Below, piece by piece: positions 33,817 through 43,514 of a stretch of DNA of 64,000 nucleotides. The translations under genes were made by a program, and so were the position numbers. Source of the stretch: an uncultured Bacteroidales bacterium (GTDB taxonomy: Bacteria; Bacteroidota; Bacteroidia; Bacteroidales; WCHB1-69); NCBI GenBank assembly GCA_946624065.1, contig CAMORT010000005.1, positions 1,187 through 65,186 of the forward strand. Direction: 5' to 3'. The notes under the pieces were generated by a model, which saw only the letters and a list, made by a program, of their open reading frames with translations, was not told the origin of the DNA and did not search any database. Positions within the stretch are counted from its first letter, which is position 1; each line of letters starts with the position of its first letter.

Positions 33817-33879
33817 TACCATGTTCACCCCATTCTCCTCCTTTACCAACGTCACCTCATGCACCCATTTCACCACCTC
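33817..33879. repeat. Degenerate nonamer array (7 x YACC+5 nt) between convergent stop codons
   Basis: taccatgtt caccccatt ctcctcctt taccaacgt cacctcatg cacccattt caccacctc. The last unit touches the ABC exporter stop. Confidence 0.7.
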
Positions 33880-35663
33880 TAACTTATCGTTTTCGCAATC
33901 TTCTCGATGTTCAGACTTCTTGCCGAGGCGTCGATGATCTCCTTGTAGATGCCGCCCTTCTTGTAGATTTCGTCGGGGTCGCCGTCCTCCTCCACGCGAC
34001 CGTCCTTGAGCGCGTAGATGTAGTCGGCGTCGATGATCTGCGAGATGCTGTGGGAGATGATGATGACGGTGCGGTCCTGCTTGATGGCGTCGATGCTGTT
34101 CTTGATCTGCTCGGTGGCGATGGCGTCTAAGCTGGCGGTGGGCTCATCGAGGAAGATGATGGGTGGATTCTTCAGAAACATGCGGGCGATGGCCACGCGC
34201 TGCTGCTGCCCGCCGGATAGGTCGGCGGCGTTGTGCGCGAACTGCTTAGGCAGTTCCATGACTTGGTCGTAGAGGTGCGCCTTTTTAGCTGCCTCCACCA
34301 CCTCCTCGTGCGAAGCTTCCGGATTGCCGTAGAGGATGTTCTCCTCAATCGTGCCGTCAAAAATGTGGTTCTTCTGCAACACCAACCCGATGTTCTCGCG
34401 CAGATATTGCGTGTCGTAGTCCTTCAGATCGACCCCGTCGAGGGTGATGGTGCCCACCTGCGGCTCGTAGAATTTGTCCAGCAAGTTGACAATCGTACTC
34501 TTGCCCGCACCCGAGAGCCCGACCAACGCTGTGATCTTGCCCGGCTCAATCTTCATATTGACGCCGAACAAAGCCTGCGTGCCGTTCGGGTAGGTGAAAT
34601 CGACACCCTTCAGCTCGAAGTTGCCGTGTATGGGCTCCGGTCTGTACTCGCCCGACGGCTCGACCTCCTTTTCGGAGTTGAGGATGCCGAAGAAACCCTC
34701 CGCGTAGATCAGCGCGTCGTTCACATCATCGAAGATGCGCTGCAGCTGTGTGATGGGCGCGATGACATTGCTGAACAACATCACATGGTACATGATCTTA
34801 CCGATGGTCATGCCCGGATACTCAATGAGCACAAGGTAGGCGGTGAGGATGATGACCAGCACGGTGCCCACCTGTCGCACGAAGCTCTTGAGACCGTTGT
34901 AGTAGAAAGCTACCCTGCGGGTTTTCATCTGGTTCTCTGTCACTTGGTTCTGAATGTCCAACTGTTTCTGCCCCTCAATCTGCTCGCGGTTGAAACTTTT
35001 GATAACATTGATGGAGTCGATGATGTTCTTGATACCCTGACTTTTAGACTCCAGATGGCTACGCATCTCGCGCCGCCAACCCTTGAGCCGACGCGCCTGG
35101 CGGTAGGTAATCCAGAAATAGACCGGCACGATGCCGAGGGCGACCAAACCGACATAAACATTGGCTGCGAACATCAGGATGAGGGCGAGCAGGGCGCTGG
35201 TGAACAACGGCAGCAGGTCGATGAAGAAGTTCTGCACCGTGCGCGACAATGAACTGACACCCTGATCGATACGAGCTTGTAGCTTGCCGGTGGCGTTGTC
35301 GCCAGAGTTGAAGAAGGCCATCTTGAAGGTGAGCACCTTCTCGATGACGCTTTGCGCCAAGTCGCGGCTGACATAAATCCGCATCCGCTCGCCGAAATAG
35401 TTCTGTGCAAAGGTGACGATTGCGGAGAGCAACTCCTTGCCTAACAGCACGATGGAGATGATGGTCATAATTCGCGCCGCCTGACCCCATTGGAAGTTGG
35501 TGCCGATGAGCGCATTGATGGCATCGACCGTCCGGTCGAGCACAATGGCGTTCACCTGTGCCATTAACGACCCGACCAAAGTCAGTATCAAAGTTGTGAA
35601 AACCAGCCACTTATAGGGCTTTACAAAAGGGCGAACATTTTTGAATAATTGGAAAAGGTTCAT
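33879..35663 (-). CDS. ABC transporter, fused permease/ATP-binding exporter (MsbA/ABCB type)
   Basis: Six N-terminal TM helices. Walker A GLSGAGKST, signature LSGGQQQRVAIARMF, Walker B IIFLDEPTASLD. Confidence 0.9.
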   Translation of the reverse strand: MNLFQLFKNVRPFVKPYKWLVFTTLILTLVGSLMAQVNAIVLDRTVDAINALIGTNFQWGQAARIMTIISIVLLGKELLSAIVTFAQNYFGERMRIYVSRDLAQSVIEKVLTFKMAFFNSGDNATGKLQARIDQGVSSLSRTVQNFFIDLLPLFTSALLALILMFAANVYVGLVALGIVPVYFWITYRQARRLKGWRREMRSHLESKSQGIKNIIDSINVIKSFNREQIEGQKQLDIQNQVTENQMKTRRVAFYYNGLKSFVRQVGTVLVIILTAYLVLIEYPGMTIGKIMYHVMLFSNVIAPITQLQRIFDDVNDALIYAEGFFGILNSEKEVEPSGEYRPEPIHGNFELKGVDFTYPNGTQALFGVNMKIEPGKITALVGLSGAGKSTIVNLLDKFYEPQVGTITLDGVDLKDYDTQYLRENIGLVLQKNHIFDGTIEENILYGNPEASHEEVVEAAKKAHLYDQVMELPKQFAHNAADLSGGQQQRVAIARMFLKNPPIIFLDEPTASLDAIATEQIKNSIDAIKQDRTVIIISHSISQIIDADYIYALKDGRVEEDGDPDEIYKKGGIYKEIIDASARSLNIEKIAKTIS

Positions 35664-35672
35664 AATGCGAAT

Positions 35673-36641
35673 TTAGTTTTTGACATATATTCCAAACAGA
35701 AAGTCGCTTGGATATTTTTGCAGATATTGGTCTTCAAACTCAAACAATTGTTGCAGGAGTAGTGTCTGATTTTGGTTGCATTCCAAAAAATGATGCGACA
35801 AATCCTTGAGCAACGGCATAAGAATATTCCCTCCATAGCCTTTTTCCTCTTTGATGGAGAAGAACTTGTGTATAGATGGCAGAATATTTGCCGATTCCAC
35901 ACATTCAGACGGATCGGAAACAATCATGCGAAGTCGCCCGGAACCGTAATATTTGTTTTTGTACAAGTTACTGCAAAACATTTTACGGTACTGTTTTTCA
36001 ATGAGGGACAATCCTTGGTTGATGGCCTCAATTTGATATTTTGGGTATTGTAATCGGTTTGCTCCCACGTATTCATTTATTACCAGCCAACCTGATGGGG
36101 AGAGTGTACGATGGATCTTTTGCAGAAAAGATTCCATGTTTTTGAAATGATGCAAGGAGCCATGGAAAAACACAAGGTCATAGCCATTTTCTGGCAGTGG
36201 ATGGGCGAGAATGTCTTCTGCTAGGAAATGCATGTTCACCAAGCCGTTTTCCGAAGCGGTTTTGGCTGCTTCTTGAATCAATTGTTCAGAGAAATCGATA
36301 CAGGTGATATCCCAATGGGAATTCAGTTGGGCAAGTTTGATTTCATGACTGCACACACCGGAACCGATGGATAGCATGCGGATTTTCTGTTCTTCGGGGA
36401 TGAGTTTCTTGGACAAGTATGTTTCGTAAGTCATCGTTTCATCCCCTGTTATCATCCGGTTCCATCGTTTTTGAACCAGAGGAATCATGGACCATGTGTC
36501 GATCCGGATGTCTGTTTCGTTGAAACTGCTCTTCGTTCTGCTTTTCCCCGAAGGGGACAATTTGCTTAACAGGAAAGGCAATCCCCGTTGCACACTTTTC
36601 AGATAAATGTCGCGAAAATCTTCTATTGTTATGAATGCCAT
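35673..36641 (-). CDS. Class I SAM-dependent methyltransferase
   Basis: Motif I MLSIGSGVCSHE and post-I/II DLVFFHGSLHHF. About 120 aa C-terminal extension. Packed between rimO (11-nt gap) and the ABC exporter (9-nt gap). Confidence 0.75.
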   Translation of the reverse strand: MAFITIEDFRDIYLKSVQRGLPFLLSKLSPSGKSRTKSSFNETDIRIDTWSMIPLVQKRWNRMITGDETMTYETYLSKKLIPEEQKIRMLSIGSGVCSHEIKLAQLNSHWDITCIDFSEQLIQEAAKTASENGLVNMHFLAEDILAHPLPENGYDLVFFHGSLHHFKNMESFLQKIHRTLSPSGWLVINEYVGANRLQYPKYQIEAINQGLSLIEKQYRKMFCSNLYKNKYYGSGRLRMIVSDPSECVESANILPSIHKFFSIKEEKGYGGNILMPLLKDLSHHFLECNQNQTLLLQQLFEFEDQYLQKYPSDFLFGIYVKN

Positions 36642-37959: not shown

Positions 37960-37994
37960 TAAAAAAAAAGCCCCTCGTTGAAGGGGCTGTTTTT
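37960..37994 (-). terminator. Terminator after the small Cys-rich lipoprotein gene
   Basis: AGCCCCT-cgttga-AGGGGCT, with a 9-nt T-run on the minus-strand side. Confidence 0.75.
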
Positions 37995-38010: not shown

Positions 38011-38229
38011 TTACATGGTAGCTTTACATTTAACCTCAGTAGTAACGCCTAAAAGGGAAGCAGAACTGTTGTAATCGGCACATTTTTTACCAGATTCCAC
38101 TTCAAAGGGATCGCCCGTAGTGGTGAGAGCTCCATTGACATAGGTCTTGCATTGGCATTTTTTGTTGCATGATGTAGTGAAGAAACAAAGCAACAAACCA
38201 GCTGCTACGATACATAATACTTTTTTCAT
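38011..38229 (-). CDS. Small Cys-rich lipoprotein (72 aa)
   Basis: Lipobox LLLCFFTTSC. The mature part has 5 more Cys (CQC...KKC...VKC). Own TACTTTTG box (38267-38274) and own terminator (37960-37994). Confidence 0.6.
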   Translation of the reverse strand: MKKVLCIVAAGLLLCFFTTSCNKKCQCKTYVNGALTTTGDPFEVESGKKCADYNSSASLLGVTTEVKCKATM

Positions 38230-38266
38230 TTCCTTAAAAGTTTTAAAATTTGTAATTAATTTGCGG

Positions 38267-38274
38267 CAAAAGTA
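38267..38274 (-). promoter_or_regulatory. -7 box TACTTTTG upstream of the small Cys-rich lipoprotein gene
   Basis: 38 nt upstream of ATG 38229. Confidence 0.45.
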
Positions 38275-38358
38275 CATTTTTTTTGAATTGCTATGCTTAA
38301 TAAATGTTAATTTAATTCACAATAGCAGGTTCAGAAGATTATTGTTATAGAGATGTTC

Positions 38359-39420
38359 TTAAACATACTTGTAGCAGCGCAGAATGGGTTGTCTGTAGTT
38401 TGACCGCAAATGCATGGCACCACCCAGACATTGTTTGTAATCGGTGCATTTCTCGCAAGAACCGCAACGCATCCAATCACGGTTACGCATGATATCAAAT
38501 CGGTTGTCCCAAACATCCATCAGGTTGTTGTTATAGATGTTTCCTTGCACAAAAGAGCGGTTGATGTTCGGGCAGGCAGAAATATCCCCGTTGACAAGCA
38601 CAGAACCGATGTTAATGCCGGCCCGGCAGAAGAAATAACTGTCGCGTACGCTCTCCTCATATTTTCCAGTGTAGGCCTCGCAGCTGAATTTCAAATCAAT
38701 TGAACCCTCACGGCGGGTGTCGGCGATGAACTGAAGCATCTCCTGCACTTGTAAATGATTAAGTTGAAGTTCGGCATTTTTTGTGGCGCGTCCGATGGGT
38801 GCAATGGTGAACAAACGCCAATGACGAATGCCGTTGGCTATGAGAAGATTCTTCAGTTGTGGTAATTCGGAAAGGTTACGTTGATGCACACAAGTCACCA
38901 CATCGTAGTTCAGATTCGGAGTGCGCGCGATGATTTGCAGCGCATGTAGTGCCCTTTGGAAACTCTGGGGATGGTTGCGTAGCCAGTTGTGAGTGTTTTC
39001 TAAACCATCCAAACTCACCGTCACCGAGCCAAGTCCAGCTGCCATGAGTTCCTGATGCCGTTTTTCATCGTACAACATGCCGTTGGTAACAATGCCCCAG
39101 CGGAAGCCATGCTCGCGGAGCACACGTCCGCATGTGGCAAGGTCAGCGCGTAATAAGGGCTCGCCACCTGTAATGGCAATAAGAGTGGTGCCGCGCTTGT
39201 AGCGTTTTTCCACGGGTTTAATGGCTGTCAGAAAATCATAAAATGGCATGTCTGGCACACATGGTTCGGCTTTGCAGTCGGAACCGCAGTGCCGACATGA
39301 CAAGTTGCACCGCGAGGTGCACTCCCAGAACAGATAATTTAACTCGTGTATGGCCGTTTCGTTTTTTCGGAACACACGGAAAAGAAACCGTTTGAACCGC
39401 TTGCTTTTATGAATTCTCAC
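38359..39420 (-). CDS. Radical SAM enzyme with C-terminal SPASM domain
   Basis: CX3CX2C motif (CNLSCRHC), GGEPLL, and a C-terminal Cys cluster CRAG...CPN...CGSCEKCTDYKQC. Confidence 0.85.
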   Translation of the reverse strand: MRIHKSKRFKRFLFRVFRKNETAIHELNYLFWECTSRCNLSCRHCGSDCKAEPCVPDMPFYDFLTAIKPVEKRYKRGTTLIAITGGEPLLRADLATCGRVLREHGFRWGIVTNGMLYDEKRHQELMAAGLGSVTVSLDGLENTHNWLRNHPQSFQRALHALQIIARTPNLNYDVVTCVHQRNLSELPQLKNLLIANGIRHWRLFTIAPIGRATKNAELQLNHLQVQEMLQFIADTRREGSIDLKFSCEAYTGKYEESVRDSYFFCRAGINIGSVLVNGDISACPNINRSFVQGNIYNNNLMDVWDNRFDIMRNRDWMRCGSCEKCTDYKQCLGGAMHLRSNYRQPILRCYKYV

Positions 39421-39817
39421 GATGCTGTTTCACTTTCAGTTCAAGTGGATTTTGAAGGTCAGAAGCAGAAATTGTGGTGTCGAACGACTCATACAATCCG
39501 TTTTCGATACTGTCAATGTCGTTTACCTGCACATCATAGCCGATCCATTCGTTAAAAAAACGTTCTCCGTTGGGATCCACAAAATTGCCTTCATTGTCGG
39601 TGATGGCTGTGAAATCCAAGGCTGGAATGGACACTTGAAGACCTTTTATGGGTGCCCCAGTTTCTGTATCAAGCACCTTGCCTTGGACTTTTGCTTTGAT
39701 ATGTATCTCCGGAGGACCATAGCAGGCTTGGAAGGTGAACATGAGTGCAGTGGCGGAAAAAGAGCCAAAAAGGAAGCGCACCAGCTGTTGTTTCTTTTCT
39801 TTGAACTTCTTGAACAT
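39407..39817 (-). CDS. Lipoprotein partner of the radical SAM enzyme (CarboxypepD_reg-like fold suspected)
   Basis: Lipobox MFTFQAC. GKVLDTETGAPIKGLQVSI...TDNEGNF. Its 3' end overlaps the rSAM start by 14 nt. Confidence 0.6.
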   Translation of the reverse strand: MFKKFKEKKQQLVRFLFGSFSATALMFTFQACYGPPEIHIKAKVQGKVLDTETGAPIKGLQVSIPALDFTAITDNEGNFVDPNGERFFNEWIGYDVQVNDIDSIENGLYESFDTTISASDLQNPLELKVKQHRENS

Positions 39818-39977
39818 AATGCCAGATTCTTAAACGTTGCAAAAATAAAAAAAATGTTGAAAAAAAGTTGATAACTTATTTTGGGTATGCGGAAAAGAAA
39901 AACGGTAAAAATTTATTTTTGCGACATCCGAAAAGAGTGATTTAAAATAAGTATAATAAACTGAAAATCAAATAACT

Positions 39978-41384
39978 ATGGGTGGTTTTTTTGGTGTAGT
40001 GTCCGATGGACCTTGCAATCCTGATTTGTTTTACGGCATCGACTACCATTCTCATCTTGGAACGAAGCGAGGTGGTATGGTGACCATCGATCACAATCTC
40101 TTCCATCGTTCCATTCACAATATAGAGAATTCTTATTTTAGGACTAAATTCGAAGAGGATTTGGCCAAGTTTACCGGTAACATGGGCATTGGCGTGATTA
40201 GTGACACAGATGCCCAACCCATTGTGGTCAATTCACATTTGGGACGCTTTGCGATAGTTACTGTTGCTAAAATTAATAATATCAGCGAATTGGAGCAGGA
40301 TTGTTTGGCCAAGAACCAGCAATTCACGGAGTTGAGTTCGGGTTCTACCAACCCTACGGAACTCATCGCCTTGATGATTACGCAAGGTCGCGATTTTGTG
40401 GACGGCATCCAGAATGTGTACCACAAGGTGAAGGGTTCGTGCTCTATGCTGATTTTGACCGATGACGGCATTATCGCAGCCCGTGACTATTATGGGCGTA
40501 CACCTATTGTAATTGGCAAGAAGGGTGGCAGTTATGCATTATCTTTCGATTGTCATAGTTTTGCCAACCTTGACTATTCCATTGAGCAGTTTGTGGGGCC
40601 CGGAGAGGTGACAAAGGTCACCCTGAATGGTGTTCAGCAATTGCTGGCTCCCAACCCTAAGATGCAGATTTGCTCGTTCTTGTGGATTTATTACGGTTAT
40701 CCGACTTCTGAATACGAGGGTGTGAATGTGGAGAATACACGTTATATGTATGGTTATGAGATGGGTCGTAACGATGATATAGAAGCCGACATGGTGTCAG
40801 CCATTCCGGATTCCGGTATTGGCATGGCCCTTGGCTATGCTATGGGAAAGCAGATTCCATATCGAAGAGGTATTGTGAAATACACGCCCACTTGGTCACG
40901 GAGCTTTATGCCTGTCACACAAGAATCGCGCGAGCATGTGGCCCGTATGAAACTGCTGCCGAACACCACTGTGCTGAAAGGCCAGCGCATTGTGTTTTGT
41001 GACGATTCCATCGTGCGCGGCACCCAGTTGCGTGACAATGTGAAAAAACTCTACGGTTACGGAGCGAAAGAAGTGCATATTCGCATCAGTTGTCCTCCGC
41101 TGACCTATGGATGTCCCTTCCTCAACTTCTCCGCATCCAAAACGGAAATGGAACTCATCACCCGCCGTGTGATTGAGGAGTTGGAAGGCGACAGCACGAA
41201 GAATCTGCATCTCTACTGCGACGATTCTACCAAAGAATATGCCAATATGGTGGAACTGATACGGAAGCATCTCGGTGTGGATACCTTGAAATTCAACCGG
41301 TTGGAAACAATCGCTAAGGCAATCGGTTTGCCGAAAGAGCGTGTCTGCACACACTGCTTCGACGGTTCTTCCTACGGAGAATAA
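39978..41384 (+). CDS. Amidophosphoribosyltransferase-like protein (PurF paralog type, N-terminus MGGFFG)
   Basis: Ntn-amidotransferase-like N-domain. PRPP loop IVFCDDSIVRGTQ. Cys residues at positions expected for the PurF 4Fe-4S cluster (CSFLW, CPPLTYGCP, CTHC). Confidence 0.85.
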   Translation: MGGFFGVVSDGPCNPDLFYGIDYHSHLGTKRGGMVTIDHNLFHRSIHNIENSYFRTKFEEDLAKFTGNMGIGVISDTDAQPIVVNSHLGRFAIVTVAKINNISELEQDCLAKNQQFTELSSGSTNPTELIALMITQGRDFVDGIQNVYHKVKGSCSMLILTDDGIIAARDYYGRTPIVIGKKGGSYALSFDCHSFANLDYSIEQFVGPGEVTKVTLNGVQQLLAPNPKMQICSFLWIYYGYPTSEYEGVNVENTRYMYGYEMGRNDDIEADMVSAIPDSGIGMALGYAMGKQIPYRRGIVKYTPTWSRSFMPVTQESREHVARMKLLPNTTVLKGQRIVFCDDSIVRGTQLRDNVKKLYGYGAKEVHIRISCPPLTYGCPFLNFSASKTEMELITRRVIEELEGDSTKNLHLYCDDSTKEYANMVELIRKHLGVDTLKFNRLETIAKAIGLPKERVCTHCFDGSSYGE

Positions 41385-41471: not shown

Positions 41472-43514
41472 ATGAGAAAATGTTTGATTTTGATATGGTT
41501 TCTGGCGTTCTTGGGCGTTTGTCAAGGTCAGATTCTCACCTCTTCCAATCTTCCCATTGTTATCATTACCACAGAAGTGAACCCGAATACGGGGTCGCAC
41601 TATTCCATTCCTGACGAGCCCAAAATCGTGGCCCACATGAAAATATTGTATGTGAACGACACGGTGGAGAACTTTCTTTCCAATCAGAACGATTCGGCGT
41701 TTTTGAATTATGATGGTTTGGTGGGAATCGAGTTGCGTGGTTCCACCTCACAAGGAAGCTATAAGAAACCATACGGATTTGAAACCAGAATGGCGGACGG
41801 TGTTACCAACAATAATGTTTCGTTGTTGGGGCTGCCTGCGGAAAACGACTGGGTGCTCAACCCGATGAATGACGAGCCGTCGTATGTGCGTGACGCCTTG
41901 TCCTACTCTTTGGCTGAAAAGATGGGGAACTATGCTCCCCGCACCAAATATTGTGAGGTGATTGTGAATGATGATTATCGGGGGCTCTATTTCCTGACGG
42001 AAAAAATTAAAATCGACGATAAAAGGGTGGATGTTTTGAAGATGGACTCATCCAGTAATGCTGTTCCGGAAGTGACAGGCGGCTATATCATCAAAGCCGA
42101 CAAAACCACAGGCGGAGATGTGCCCGCATGGTCAACACCGGCATACGATTATTGGGAAAATGTGGATTATATTTTCCACAATCCGAAACCGGAAGAAATC
42201 ACACCGGAGCAAAGTGTGTACATCCAGAGTTATTTCGATACCATCCAGGAGTTGATGAATGCGCATAATCAAAATGTAACAAATGGATTTCCTGCATATT
42301 TGGATGTGCCCTCTTTTGTGGATTATATGATTATAGGCGAACTTTCGTCCAATGTTGACATTTACCAGAAAAGCACATTCTTTCACAAAGACCGTAACGG
42401 GAAACTGCGGGCGGGTCCTGTTTGGGATTTCAATCTGGCATACGGGTATGATTTTGGCTCCGTTGGCCGTTCCGGGTACGATGTGTTCCAATTCGCCAAT
42501 GGGGATAATACCGGTTCCGATTTTTGGCATCAATTGTATGAGAACGGTATGTTCCGCTGTGCTTTGGCGCACCGTTGGAATGAATTGACAAGTGAAGGCG
42601 CTCCATTGTCATATGACCAGATTGTCCATGTGATCGACAGTTTGACCGACCGGATCAGTCAGGCGTTACCGCGCGAACGCTTGCGTTGGTTCCAGTTTTA
42701 CAATTACAACTCCCATATCAGTAATATGAAGGCCTGGATACAGAATCGGCAAGACTGGTTGTCAGCCAACTGGAACGGTTCCGATGTGTGTATTCCAGAC
42801 CAACAACTGCCATTGGTGATTTCGAAAATCCATTATCACCCACCCGTTTGGAATGGCTATAATTCTGATCAACAGGAGTTTATCGGCATCACTAATAACG
42901 GGGACGACACTTTGGATGTTTCGGGGGTTTATTTCATGAAACTCGGTTTGACCTATGCTTTTCCTGAGGGTTCTTTGATACCGCCTCACAAAGAGGTTTT
43001 CTTGGTTTCAAATGCCCAAGCGTTTGCGGAAAGGTTCAATTTGACTGCCTATGGGGTGTTTACCCGCCATCTCTCCAACAAATCGCAGGAGTTGGTGCTT
43101 GCGGATGCTTGGGGCAATATCATTGATGAGGTGACTTATCGTGACACACTGCCTTGGCCAATGTCGGCTGACGGGCGAGGCGATTTTCTAGTGCTGATGA
43201 ATTTGGACGCAGACAACAGTCTTGGCGAGAATTGGACCACGGCATCGGAGTTTGTGGGAGTCTCCCATTATTGTCAACAGCATGCGGATATTCAGGCAAG
43301 TCCAAATCCCACTAAAGGTCTGATACAAATAGTGTCGGCAATTCCGATGCGCCAGATTGTTGTGTTTGACATGCAAGGGCGTCAACTTTTAGCTCAAGAA
43401 TTGTACGATGATTCCACCTCAGTGGATATGACCGCTTTTCAGTCGGGGGTGTATTTTGTGCGCGTCACCGACCAGGATCGTCAATCGGTCGTGATGAAGG
43501 TTGTAAAGTGGTAG
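41472..43514 (+). CDS. CotH kinase-family protein with lamin-tail (LTD) domain and T9SS C-terminal sorting domain
   Basis: CotH-like motifs YGFETR, DWVLNPMNDEPSYVRDALSYSLAEKMG, YRGLYFLTEKIK and FNLAYGY. LTD-like ISKIHYHP...EFIGITNNGDDTLDVSG. C-terminus IQASPNPTKGLIQI...GVYFVRVTD. Confidence 0.8.
   Translation: MRKCLILIWFLAFLGVCQGQILTSSNLPIVIITTEVNPNTGSHYSIPDEPKIVAHMKILYVNDTVENFLSNQNDSAFLNYDGLVGIELRGSTSQGSYKKPYGFETRMADGVTNNNVSLLGLPAENDWVLNPMNDEPSYVRDALSYSLAEKMGNYAPRTKYCEVIVNDDYRGLYFLTEKIKIDDKRVDVLKMDSSSNAVPEVTGGYIIKADKTTGGDVPAWSTPAYDYWENVDYIFHNPKPEEITPEQSVYIQSYFDTIQELMNAHNQNVTNGFPAYLDVPSFVDYMIIGELSSNVDIYQKSTFFHKDRNGKLRAGPVWDFNLAYGYDFGSVGRSGYDVFQFANGDNTGSDFWHQLYENGMFRCALAHRWNELTSEGAPLSYDQIVHVIDSLTDRISQALPRERLRWFQFYNYNSHISNMKAWIQNRQDWLSANWNGSDVCIPDQQLPLVISKIHYHPPVWNGYNSDQQEFIGITNNGDDTLDVSGVYFMKLGLTYAFPEGSLIPPHKEVFLVSNAQAFAERFNLTAYGVFTRHLSNKSQELVLADAWGNIIDEVTYRDTLPWPMSADGRGDFLVLMNLDADNSLGENWTTASEFVGVSHYCQQHADIQASPNPTKGLIQIVSAIPMRQIVVFDMQGRQLLAQELYDDSTSVDMTAFQSGVYFVRVTDQDRQSVVMKVVKW

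Follow-up and report, generated by a model that had tools for sequence, protein, structure and literature searches.

Spliceases are radical S-adenosylmethionine (SAM)/SPASM enzymes which excise a tyramine equivalent at X-Tyr-Gly sites with a loss of 135.06 Da (PMC11626197, PMC11414181), and splice tags including PIRP-LYGLP-I and AVAA-(M)YGVVFP have been published (PMC10533398). The spliceases compared in this study were PlpX/PcpX, which have a Y protein (type I, TIGR04103 / IPR026482), and the binary enzymes RhaX, RcsX and RasX (type II). Modification of proteins before export by cytoplasmic radical SAM/SPASM enzymes is also known from anaerobic sulfatase-maturating enzyme (anSME), which acts on sulfatases, and from QhpD, which acts on QhpC. 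Here we analysed a 64,000-nt stretch of DNA from an uncultured rumen Bacteroidales bacterium (assembly GCA_946624065.1, contig CAMORT010000005.1, positions 1,187 to 65,186; this whole stretch is termed the window, and all coordinates below are positions in it), which carries on its minus strand a lipoprotein gene overlapping the gene of a radical SAM/SPASM enzyme. This pair (39817..38359) is a member of the TIGR04133/TIGR04134 'rSAM/lipoprotein system', two NCBIfam hypothetical equivalogs whose definition carries no function; a literature search found no mention of TIGR04133 and a single one of TIGR04134, in a type IX secretion review. The locus is thus an ordinary member of a catalogued, functionally uncharacterised family, for which comparison of the partner proteins provides a well-supported hypothesis of the substrate site.

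A first-pass annotation of the window had described a 136-aa lipoprotein gene overlapping by 14 nt the gene of a radical SAM enzyme with a CX3CX2C motif and a SPASM-type Cys cluster, and had pointed to an 'rSAM/lipoprotein system' in TIGRFAMs. Open reading frame (ORF) calls gave the same two overlapping genes, and the enzyme matched Pfam Radical_SAM (PF04055, residues 33-192, 61.5 bits, E 1.4e-16) and SPASM (PF13186, residues 265-326, 27.6 bits, E 3.5e-6), both over the gathering score. The identity named there was correct, since both family profiles scored over their cut-offs. The enzyme matched TIGR04133 (rSAM_w_lipo) with 466.3 bits against a cut-off of 425 (E 5.4e-140), residues 9-350 covering profile positions 5-345 of 350, and a genome-wide profile search returned it with the same score as the single copy in the genome; the lipoprotein passed TIGR04134 (lipo_with_rSAM) marginally, with 40.7 bits against a cut-off of 39.8.

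The pairing of enzyme and lipoprotein is conserved, an adjacent partner being present in nearly every locus of a survey of approximately 178, of which 98 came from genus, order and phylum searches and 80 were collected independently by searching species-representative genomes with a pattern. A neighbouring X-Tyr-Gly protein was found in 86 of the 98 loci by script and in three more by inspection, the remainder being mostly loci cut by contig ends or distant homologues (28-33% identity), and in approximately 75 of the 80 independent loci; across the survey, Tyr-Gly is present in about 165 of the 178. Within the genus, strong matches to a partner profile were obtained in all 18 enzyme-positive genomes and in one of the seven enzyme-negative genomes (G023). 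Of 401 genomes sampled from the order Bacteroidales, 93 had TIGR04133, whereas a phylum-wide draw of 401 genomes had it in only 4, all of them Bacteroidales. The pair occurs in about 23% of the sampled species and 66 of the 236 sampled genera of this order, with more than 586 loci among species-representative genomes. Its hosts include rumen and gut taxa, among them Bacteroides thetaiotaomicron. The first-pass annotation had also stressed that no protease or exporter is adjacent, and had favoured modification of an envelope lipoprotein over that of a released peptide, which fits the anatomy of the pair. Neither a leader peptidase nor a dedicated exporter is conserved beside the pair in the surveyed loci, and the neighbourhood survey revealed no conserved third gene; the window itself does contain an ATP-binding cassette (ABC) exporter gene (35663..33879), which lies some 2.3 kb downstream of the pair, past rimO and a methyltransferase gene, and does not travel with the pair in relatives. 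TIGR04133-type enzymes with 50-62% identity and XYG partners were also seen in metagenome-assembled genomes (MAGs) of termite-gut Treponema/Spirochaetia, Chloroflexota and Hydrogenedentales (L131, L134, L140, L144, L146, L147, L149, L194 and L197), which points to horizontal spread or binning errors.

The partners are diverse, and the sole feature common to them is X-Tyr-Gly, usually followed by x-Pro. They include beta-sandwich lipoproteins (120-160 aa) whose motif is either CYG[TMPAV]P, at the lipobox, or [EM]YG[TVMS]P, a few residues further on; lipopeptides of 55-80 aa in which CYGxP and an acidic tail are all that follows the signal peptide; coiled-coil lipoproteins in which VYGSPE recurs; and a cytoplasmic 70-aa protein (L007) with neither signal peptide nor Cys, which contains IYGPMP and LYGPPP. 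Two spirochaete partners (L144 and L146) have AYG, with no lipobox Cys or any other Cys. The Tyr and Gly stay where the Cys or the Pro is lost, many partners having the Tyr-Gly 4-10 residues from the Cys or having no Cys, and the residue X varies between C, E, M, V, I, L, A and Y. In 50 CYG-type partners full invariance is confined to A31, C32, Y33, G34 and P36, with R14, F27, F29 and Q30 conserved at 82-84%, and A31, C32, Y33 and G34 are likewise invariant in a second partner set. The TIGR04134 profile captures this diversity unevenly, scoring EYG-type partners at 106 bits, the window partner at threshold and other CYG types under the cut-off, and it is blind to the short and coiled-coil partners. 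The enzyme tree tracks the identity of X: C-type partners all fall on one side of a branch (support 90/98), and the E/M/V/A/I/L-type partners form one nested clade, a fit equalled by none of 500 label shuffles. From these data we consider X-Tyr-Gly-x-Pro very probably to be the modification site. The first-pass annotation had missed this invariant Tyr-Gly site; its overall interpretation is partly supported.

In the window lipoprotein the lipobox is FQAC, with Cys32 directly preceding Tyr33. An AlphaFold2 (AF2) model from a 35-sequence alignment (predicted local distance difference test, pLDDT, 92) comprises a helix of residues 2-33, running from the signal peptide to Tyr33, a linker G34-P-P-E-I and a beta-sandwich of residues 39-129, and because of this layout the target site is placed at the junction of signal helix and mature domain. 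The best Foldseek matches of the model were to carboxypeptidase D (3mn8_D, E 1.9e-4), with a target TM-score of 0.75 to the isolated carboxypeptidase D transthyretin-like domain 5aq0, in agreement with sub-threshold Pfam CarboxypepD_reg matches. The domain has a conserved D-x-D-x(3)-N-G loop but is dispensable, as short partners in relatives lack it. A genome-wide ORF check found YG.P in 2% of ORFs and a single lipoprotein with C-Y-G-x-P. Two other lipoproteins of the genome have Tyr-Gly soon after the lipobox, one encoded at C2:130-528 (SCVKHSCEYGQPAKIVF), which the TIGR04134 profile does not recognise, and one on the minus strand of C21 (a 155-aa ORF, CDPPSPTIPYGVYGTV) in which a CarboxypepD_reg-like region follows; these may be candidate substrates in trans or chance matches.

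The GTG start of the enzyme gene is the first start codon past two in-frame TGA stops, and only this start retains both the conserved N-terminal KRFLFRVFRKNE block of relatives and the profile match from residue 9. Public metagenome gene calls for the species (L119-L124) instead start at an internal ATG, giving a 296-aa protein from which the CX3CX2C motif is therefore cut off; as such, an enzyme of this species retrieved from public annotation lacks its catalytic motif. The motif lies in an invariant block W-E-C-T-x-R-C-N-L-x-C-x-H-C-G-S-D-C (alignment A1), the H-C-G-S part of which is common to the Nostoc TIGR04103, Aureibacter and Agathobacter enzymes. Across the TIGR04133 family twelve Cys are invariant, among them C247, C265, C283, C322, C325, C331 and C349, and the Cys of the SPASM region are predicted ligands of auxiliary Fe-S clusters. 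The closest relatives of the enzyme (74-79% identity) are from rumen 'Bacteroidales bacterium' MAGs (RUG312, RGIG7251, ruminal_MAG_24 and RUG13189). Features of the locus are listed in Table 1; its -7 boxes were scored against the pattern TANNTTTG (TAnnTTTG), which has 58 matches in the window with 39 expected by chance, and three such boxes precede the 136-aa gene, the 72-aa gene downstream of the pair and rimO (37961-37954).

Table 1. Features of the enzyme/lipoprotein pair and of the neighbouring mini-lipoprotein gene.
Feature	Position	Strand	Basis or comment
-7 promoter box, Bacteroidetes-type, TATTTTTG	39840..39847	-	23 nt 5' of lipoprotein ATG; consensus match only
Partner lipoprotein gene, putative substrate	39407..39817	-	ORF, 136 aa, TIGR04134 family
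Signal peptide, residues 1-31, basic N-region then h-region LFGSFSATALMFTFQA	39725..39817	-	Predicted helix, residues 2-33
C32-Y33-G34-P35-P36, lipobox Cys and X-Y-G-x-P, proposed modification site	39710..39724	-	Codons tgc tat ggt cct ccg
Transthyretin-like / carboxypeptidase-regulatory beta-sandwich, residues 39-129	39431..39703	-	AF2 strands, Foldseek
Radical SAM/SPASM enzyme gene, TIGR04133 family	38359..39420	-	353 aa, GTG start, 14-nt overlap with lipoprotein gene
CX3CX2C cluster motif, C38-N-L-S-C42-R-H-C45	39286..39309	-	Columns invariant in alignment A1
SPASM region, residues 265-349, including C265-x12-G-x4-C283	38374..38628	-	Pfam SPASM; invariant Cys
-7 box of mini-lipoprotein gene, Bacteroidetes-type, TACTTTTG	38267..38274	-	Consensus match
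Cys-rich mini-lipoprotein, 72 aa	38011..38229	-	Conserved mini-lipoprotein-rimO unit, not part of the system
Intrinsic terminator after mini-lipoprotein gene	37969..37988	-	Hairpin and T-run

Several features of the pair resemble those of splicease systems. In both, a radical SAM/SPASM enzyme is encoded alongside its substrate or putative substrate, and the site is X-Y-G, often X-Y-G-x-P, with PlpA2 having LYGLPI. A TIGR04103 enzyme of Nostoc sp. C057 (853 bits), retrieved by tblastn of plasmids, lies beside a Nif11 precursor ending AGG-RGSIA-LYGLPPE-LF, with a 71-aa Y-like ORF after the enzyme gene, and because this precursor has LYGLPPE and the window partner CYGPPE, the X-Y-G-x-P(-P-E) shape is common to the two systems. 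A search of genome contigs with the back-translated PlpA2 core (PIRPLYGLPI) gave no matches. Variable X is a further shared trait, several TIGR04133 partners have repeated sites, and binary spliceases have a leader helix instead of a separate Y protein. The substrates proposed here differ in having Sec/signal peptidase II signal peptides, in contrast to the Nif11 or NHLP leader peptides of spliceotides, no protease or exporter is needed, and in the clade of the window enzyme the site overlaps the lipobox. No paper joining splicease and lipoprotein was found in our literature search, whose scope did not extend to the splicease census of Scott et al. 2022. This census reportedly describes 939 predicted splicease systems from 189 genera, and the TIGR04133 system may already be among its types.

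Taking these likenesses together, we tentatively interpret the pair as a two-gene protein-modification unit with tyramine excision at C32-Y33-G34-P35-P36 as its most likely chemistry, an assignment that falls just short of probable. Transcription of the two overlapping genes would start from the -7 box at 39847, with joint translation, and the enzyme would bind the nascent precursor in the cytoplasm around its signal helix. As the enzyme is predicted to be cytoplasmic and without a signal peptide, it would act on Tyr33-Gly34 of the precursor before Sec export, where 5'-deoxyadenosyl radical chemistry would excise a tyramine equivalent (C8H9NO, -135.07 Da) from Tyr33. Lgt, signal peptidase II and N-acylation would then process Cys32, and these steps should still work because the amino side of Cys32 would be unchanged. 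The mature protein would start with a lipidated alpha-keto-beta-Cys joined to Gly-Pro-Pro, giving a beta-sandwich lipoprotein with an electrophilic ketoamide beside its lipid anchor. Ketoamides of beta-amino acids are a known protease-inhibitor pharmacophore, and the product may function as a protease inhibitor or a covalent-capture handle. Slightly less probable is the wider proposal that TIGR04133 constitutes a Bacteroidales-wide branch of tyramine spliceases acting on lipoproteins, in which the Sec/signal peptidase II signal peptide would double as leader and the ketoamide would be displayed on the envelope or on outer-membrane vesicles as a protease trap or covalent-capture handle. If the Tyr-Gly reading is true, a lipoprotein would for the first time be seen to undergo backbone splicing, and envelope proteins of major gut and rumen bacteria would bear a beta-amino-acid ketoamide where their lipid is anchored; for protein engineering, a signal peptide followed by CYGxP would amount to a minimal leader-free splice tag. 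The pair is common in Bacteroidales and has been without a function since it was catalogued, and Bacteroides thetaiotaomicron is a tractable host.

A number of observations weigh against tyramine excision by this enzyme. The window enzyme is not a member of TIGR04103, on which it scores 108 bits against a cut-off of 725, less than on NirJ2 (124), TIGR03913 (121), AhbD (119) and also TIGR04053; it is 25% identical to the Nostoc TIGR04103 enzyme, for which TIGR04133 is only the fourth-best profile, its 152 bits being on a par with AhbD and NirJ2. A tree of 22 sequences, with outgroups including PqqE, MftC and TIGR04053 and with AhbD and NirJ left out, recovered TIGR04133 as monophyletic (100/99) and placed the remaining XYG-associated enzymes in one clade (94/93), and the node joining the two is weak (41/21); when this joint clade was forced it was merely not rejected (approximately unbiased (AU) test, p = 0.60). 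Sequence and phylogeny thus neither show nor reject splicease kinship of TIGR04133. Neither a RiPP (ribosomally synthesised and post-translationally modified peptide) recognition element (RRE) nor a Y protein is present at the system, leaving the signal-peptide helix as the sole leader candidate, and a leader or recognition role for this helix is conjectural. Conservation is higher in the signal peptide (66%) than in the mature part (40%), but this lends such a role little weight because the unrelated mini-lipoprotein encoded downstream shows a like trend (56% versus 42%). Docking was modelled on locus L137, where partner and enzyme are in the same frame with a single TAG, read here as Gly to give a 414-aa fusion (alignment A3); the enzyme part folded well, the partner part reached a pLDDT of only 42-61 and did not dock, and given this low confidence the model is uninformative on docking. 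Finally, genome G023, which is 95% complete, has an intact CYGMP partner and no detectable TIGR04133. Its partner, mini-lipoprotein and rimO genes are contiguous (L047, G023:C10, 480-2556) with no enzyme gene between them, and in G006 (L032, G006:C5) an intact CYGMP partner is likewise followed directly by mini-lipoprotein and rimO genes, with TIGR04133 on another contig. It looks as if in these genomes the enzyme gene has been lost or relocated, or acts in trans.

All the evidence for Tyr-Gly as the target would also fit if the same pair acted on the same site by another radical chemistry, an alternative which we regard as rather unlikely. It would include a Tyr cross-link, such as a three-residue Y-G-x cyclophane as in triceptides or a C-O or C-C link, Tyr Calpha-Cbeta cleavage with a loss of 106 Da, epimerisation, beta-hydroxylation or desaturation. 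Many reactions on aromatic residues are known for SPASM enzymes, the nearest solved folds of the window enzyme (BlsE, SkfB, SuiB, anSME and PqqE, no splicease structure being present in the PDB) belong to enzymes that catalyse varied reactions, and the window enzyme has no special sequence affinity to TIGR04103. However, an invariant Gly after the Tyr together with a variable X is the defining pattern of a splice site, the x-Pro extension matches splicease cores, and known cyclophane motifs leave position 2 free, their enzymes usually carrying an RRE domain. Other alternatives move the reaction away from the Tyr-Gly site. The lipoprotein might be no substrate at all but a functional or regulatory partner of an enzyme whose true target, as for NirJ/AhbD or BlsE, is a small molecule or cofactor. 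This would account for the heme-modifying NirJ2 and AhbD being the best matches outside the family, for the best PDB sequence match being BlsE, which acts on a small molecule, for the lack of docking in the fusion model and for the partner genes of G006, G023 and G024 that have no adjacent enzyme gene. It is nevertheless improbable: the gene overlap, the motif invariant in otherwise unrelated partners and the tracking of X by the enzyme tree fit an enzyme and its substrate, no cofactor-pathway genes are conserved near the pair, and the two proteins could meet only before export, because the enzyme is cytoplasmic and the partner exported.

An anSME-like activity, converting the lipobox Cys to formylglycine or acting on this Cys in some other way, would be in keeping with the presence of anSME among the best structural neighbours (target TM-score approximately 0.70) and with the use of anSME by Bacteroidales on exported sulfatases. 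Like anSME and QhpD, the window enzyme is a radical SAM/SPASM protein that would modify its target in the cytoplasm before export. The defining features of those systems, C/S-x-P-x-R conversion to formylglycine and Cys-Asp/Glu thioethers, are absent here, as CYGPP does not fit C/S-x-P-x-R, and many partners have their Tyr-Gly 4-10 residues from the Cys or no Cys to act upon. The first-pass annotation had named assignment to a known function such as anSME as one outcome that would overturn its reading, and TIGR03942 is outside the 25 best-scoring NCBIfam families of the enzyme; we regard an anSME-like activity as barely credible. Thioether, sactipeptide or ranthipeptide chemistry is likewise unlikely family-wide, since most partners have the lipobox Cys only and L007, L144 and L146 have none.

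A different substrate was suggested by the first-pass annotation, in which the Cys-rich mini-lipoprotein encoded directly 3' of the pair was put forward either as a protein in which the enzyme forms thioethers or cross-links or as its redox partner. The mini-lipoprotein follows the pair only in the window genome and in G011 and G021, no terminator-like site was found between it and the enzyme gene, and beyond the lipobox Cys21 it has four conserved Cys (25, 27, 50 and 68, in a C-x-C...C...C pattern) rather than the five originally counted. This proposal now seems very improbable, as the gene is an independent neighbour. Every one of the 25 genomes of the genus has a homologue, the seven without TIGR04133 not excepted, and in 14 of 20 loci the gene lies directly 5' of rimO, with or without the enzyme. 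In enzyme-positive genomes it mostly lies on a different contig or some 12 kb away, other genes standing 3' of most enzyme loci, and the protein has no X-Y-G motif, with no Tyr-Gly at a conserved position. The gene has its own -7 box and terminator, as the first-pass annotation had stated. Its conserved features are a signal peptide and the four Cys, for which two periplasmic disulfides would be the simplest explanation; no Pfam or NCBIfam match was obtained for it. The family (L028-L047) is genus-wide, with 1-4 matches per genome and the pattern TSC-NKxCxC-KTY...KKCxDYN...EC.

Outside the family, the best matches of the window enzyme by identity (30-32%) are TIGR03913 'GDL motif peptide-associated' and Agathobacter enzymes, the nearest homologue being that of Agathobacter rectalis (30.6%), which scores 235 bits on TIGR04103, 225 on TIGR03913 and 185 on TIGR04133. 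These enzymes group with TIGR04103 (94/93) and lie beside small x-Y-G proteins (MLYGG, KPYGV and VMYGTG), but their substrates are cytoplasmic peptides and not lipoproteins, and some DUF1843 copies have Y-A and not Y-G. On the A. rectalis plasmid NZ_CP143948.1 an unannotated ORF (L206, 2713-2919) is located directly 5' of the radical SAM/SPASM gene, which is followed by a major facilitator superfamily (MFS) transporter gene. Its likely product is a 35-aa peptide (MFNLEELSLEFVKISELKTSKNLFGPVMYGTGVRM) ending GPVMYGTGVRM, and L206 thereby resembles the locus of a binary RiPP system of splicease type, here in a Firmicute of the human gut. Two further loci (L207, 2028-2743, and L208, 2153-2866) encode DUF1843 'GDL motif' peptides with an N-terminal x-Y-G (MLYGG, KPYGV and QPYGA) beside TIGR03913-type enzymes, and paralogues have x-Y-A or x-Y-M; the family nearest to TIGR04103 is TIGR03913 (414 bits). 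In the window, rimO and the ABC exporter gene are separated by a gene for a 322-aa methyltransferase (35673-36641, minus strand), which is found in strains L119 and L121 of the species and not in L120 or L122-L124. On the other side of the pair, beyond a PurF-like gene (39978-41384), 41472-43514 on the plus strand encodes a secreted protein of 680 aa that combines CotH and LTD domains with Por_Secre_tail, a sorting domain of type IX secretion.

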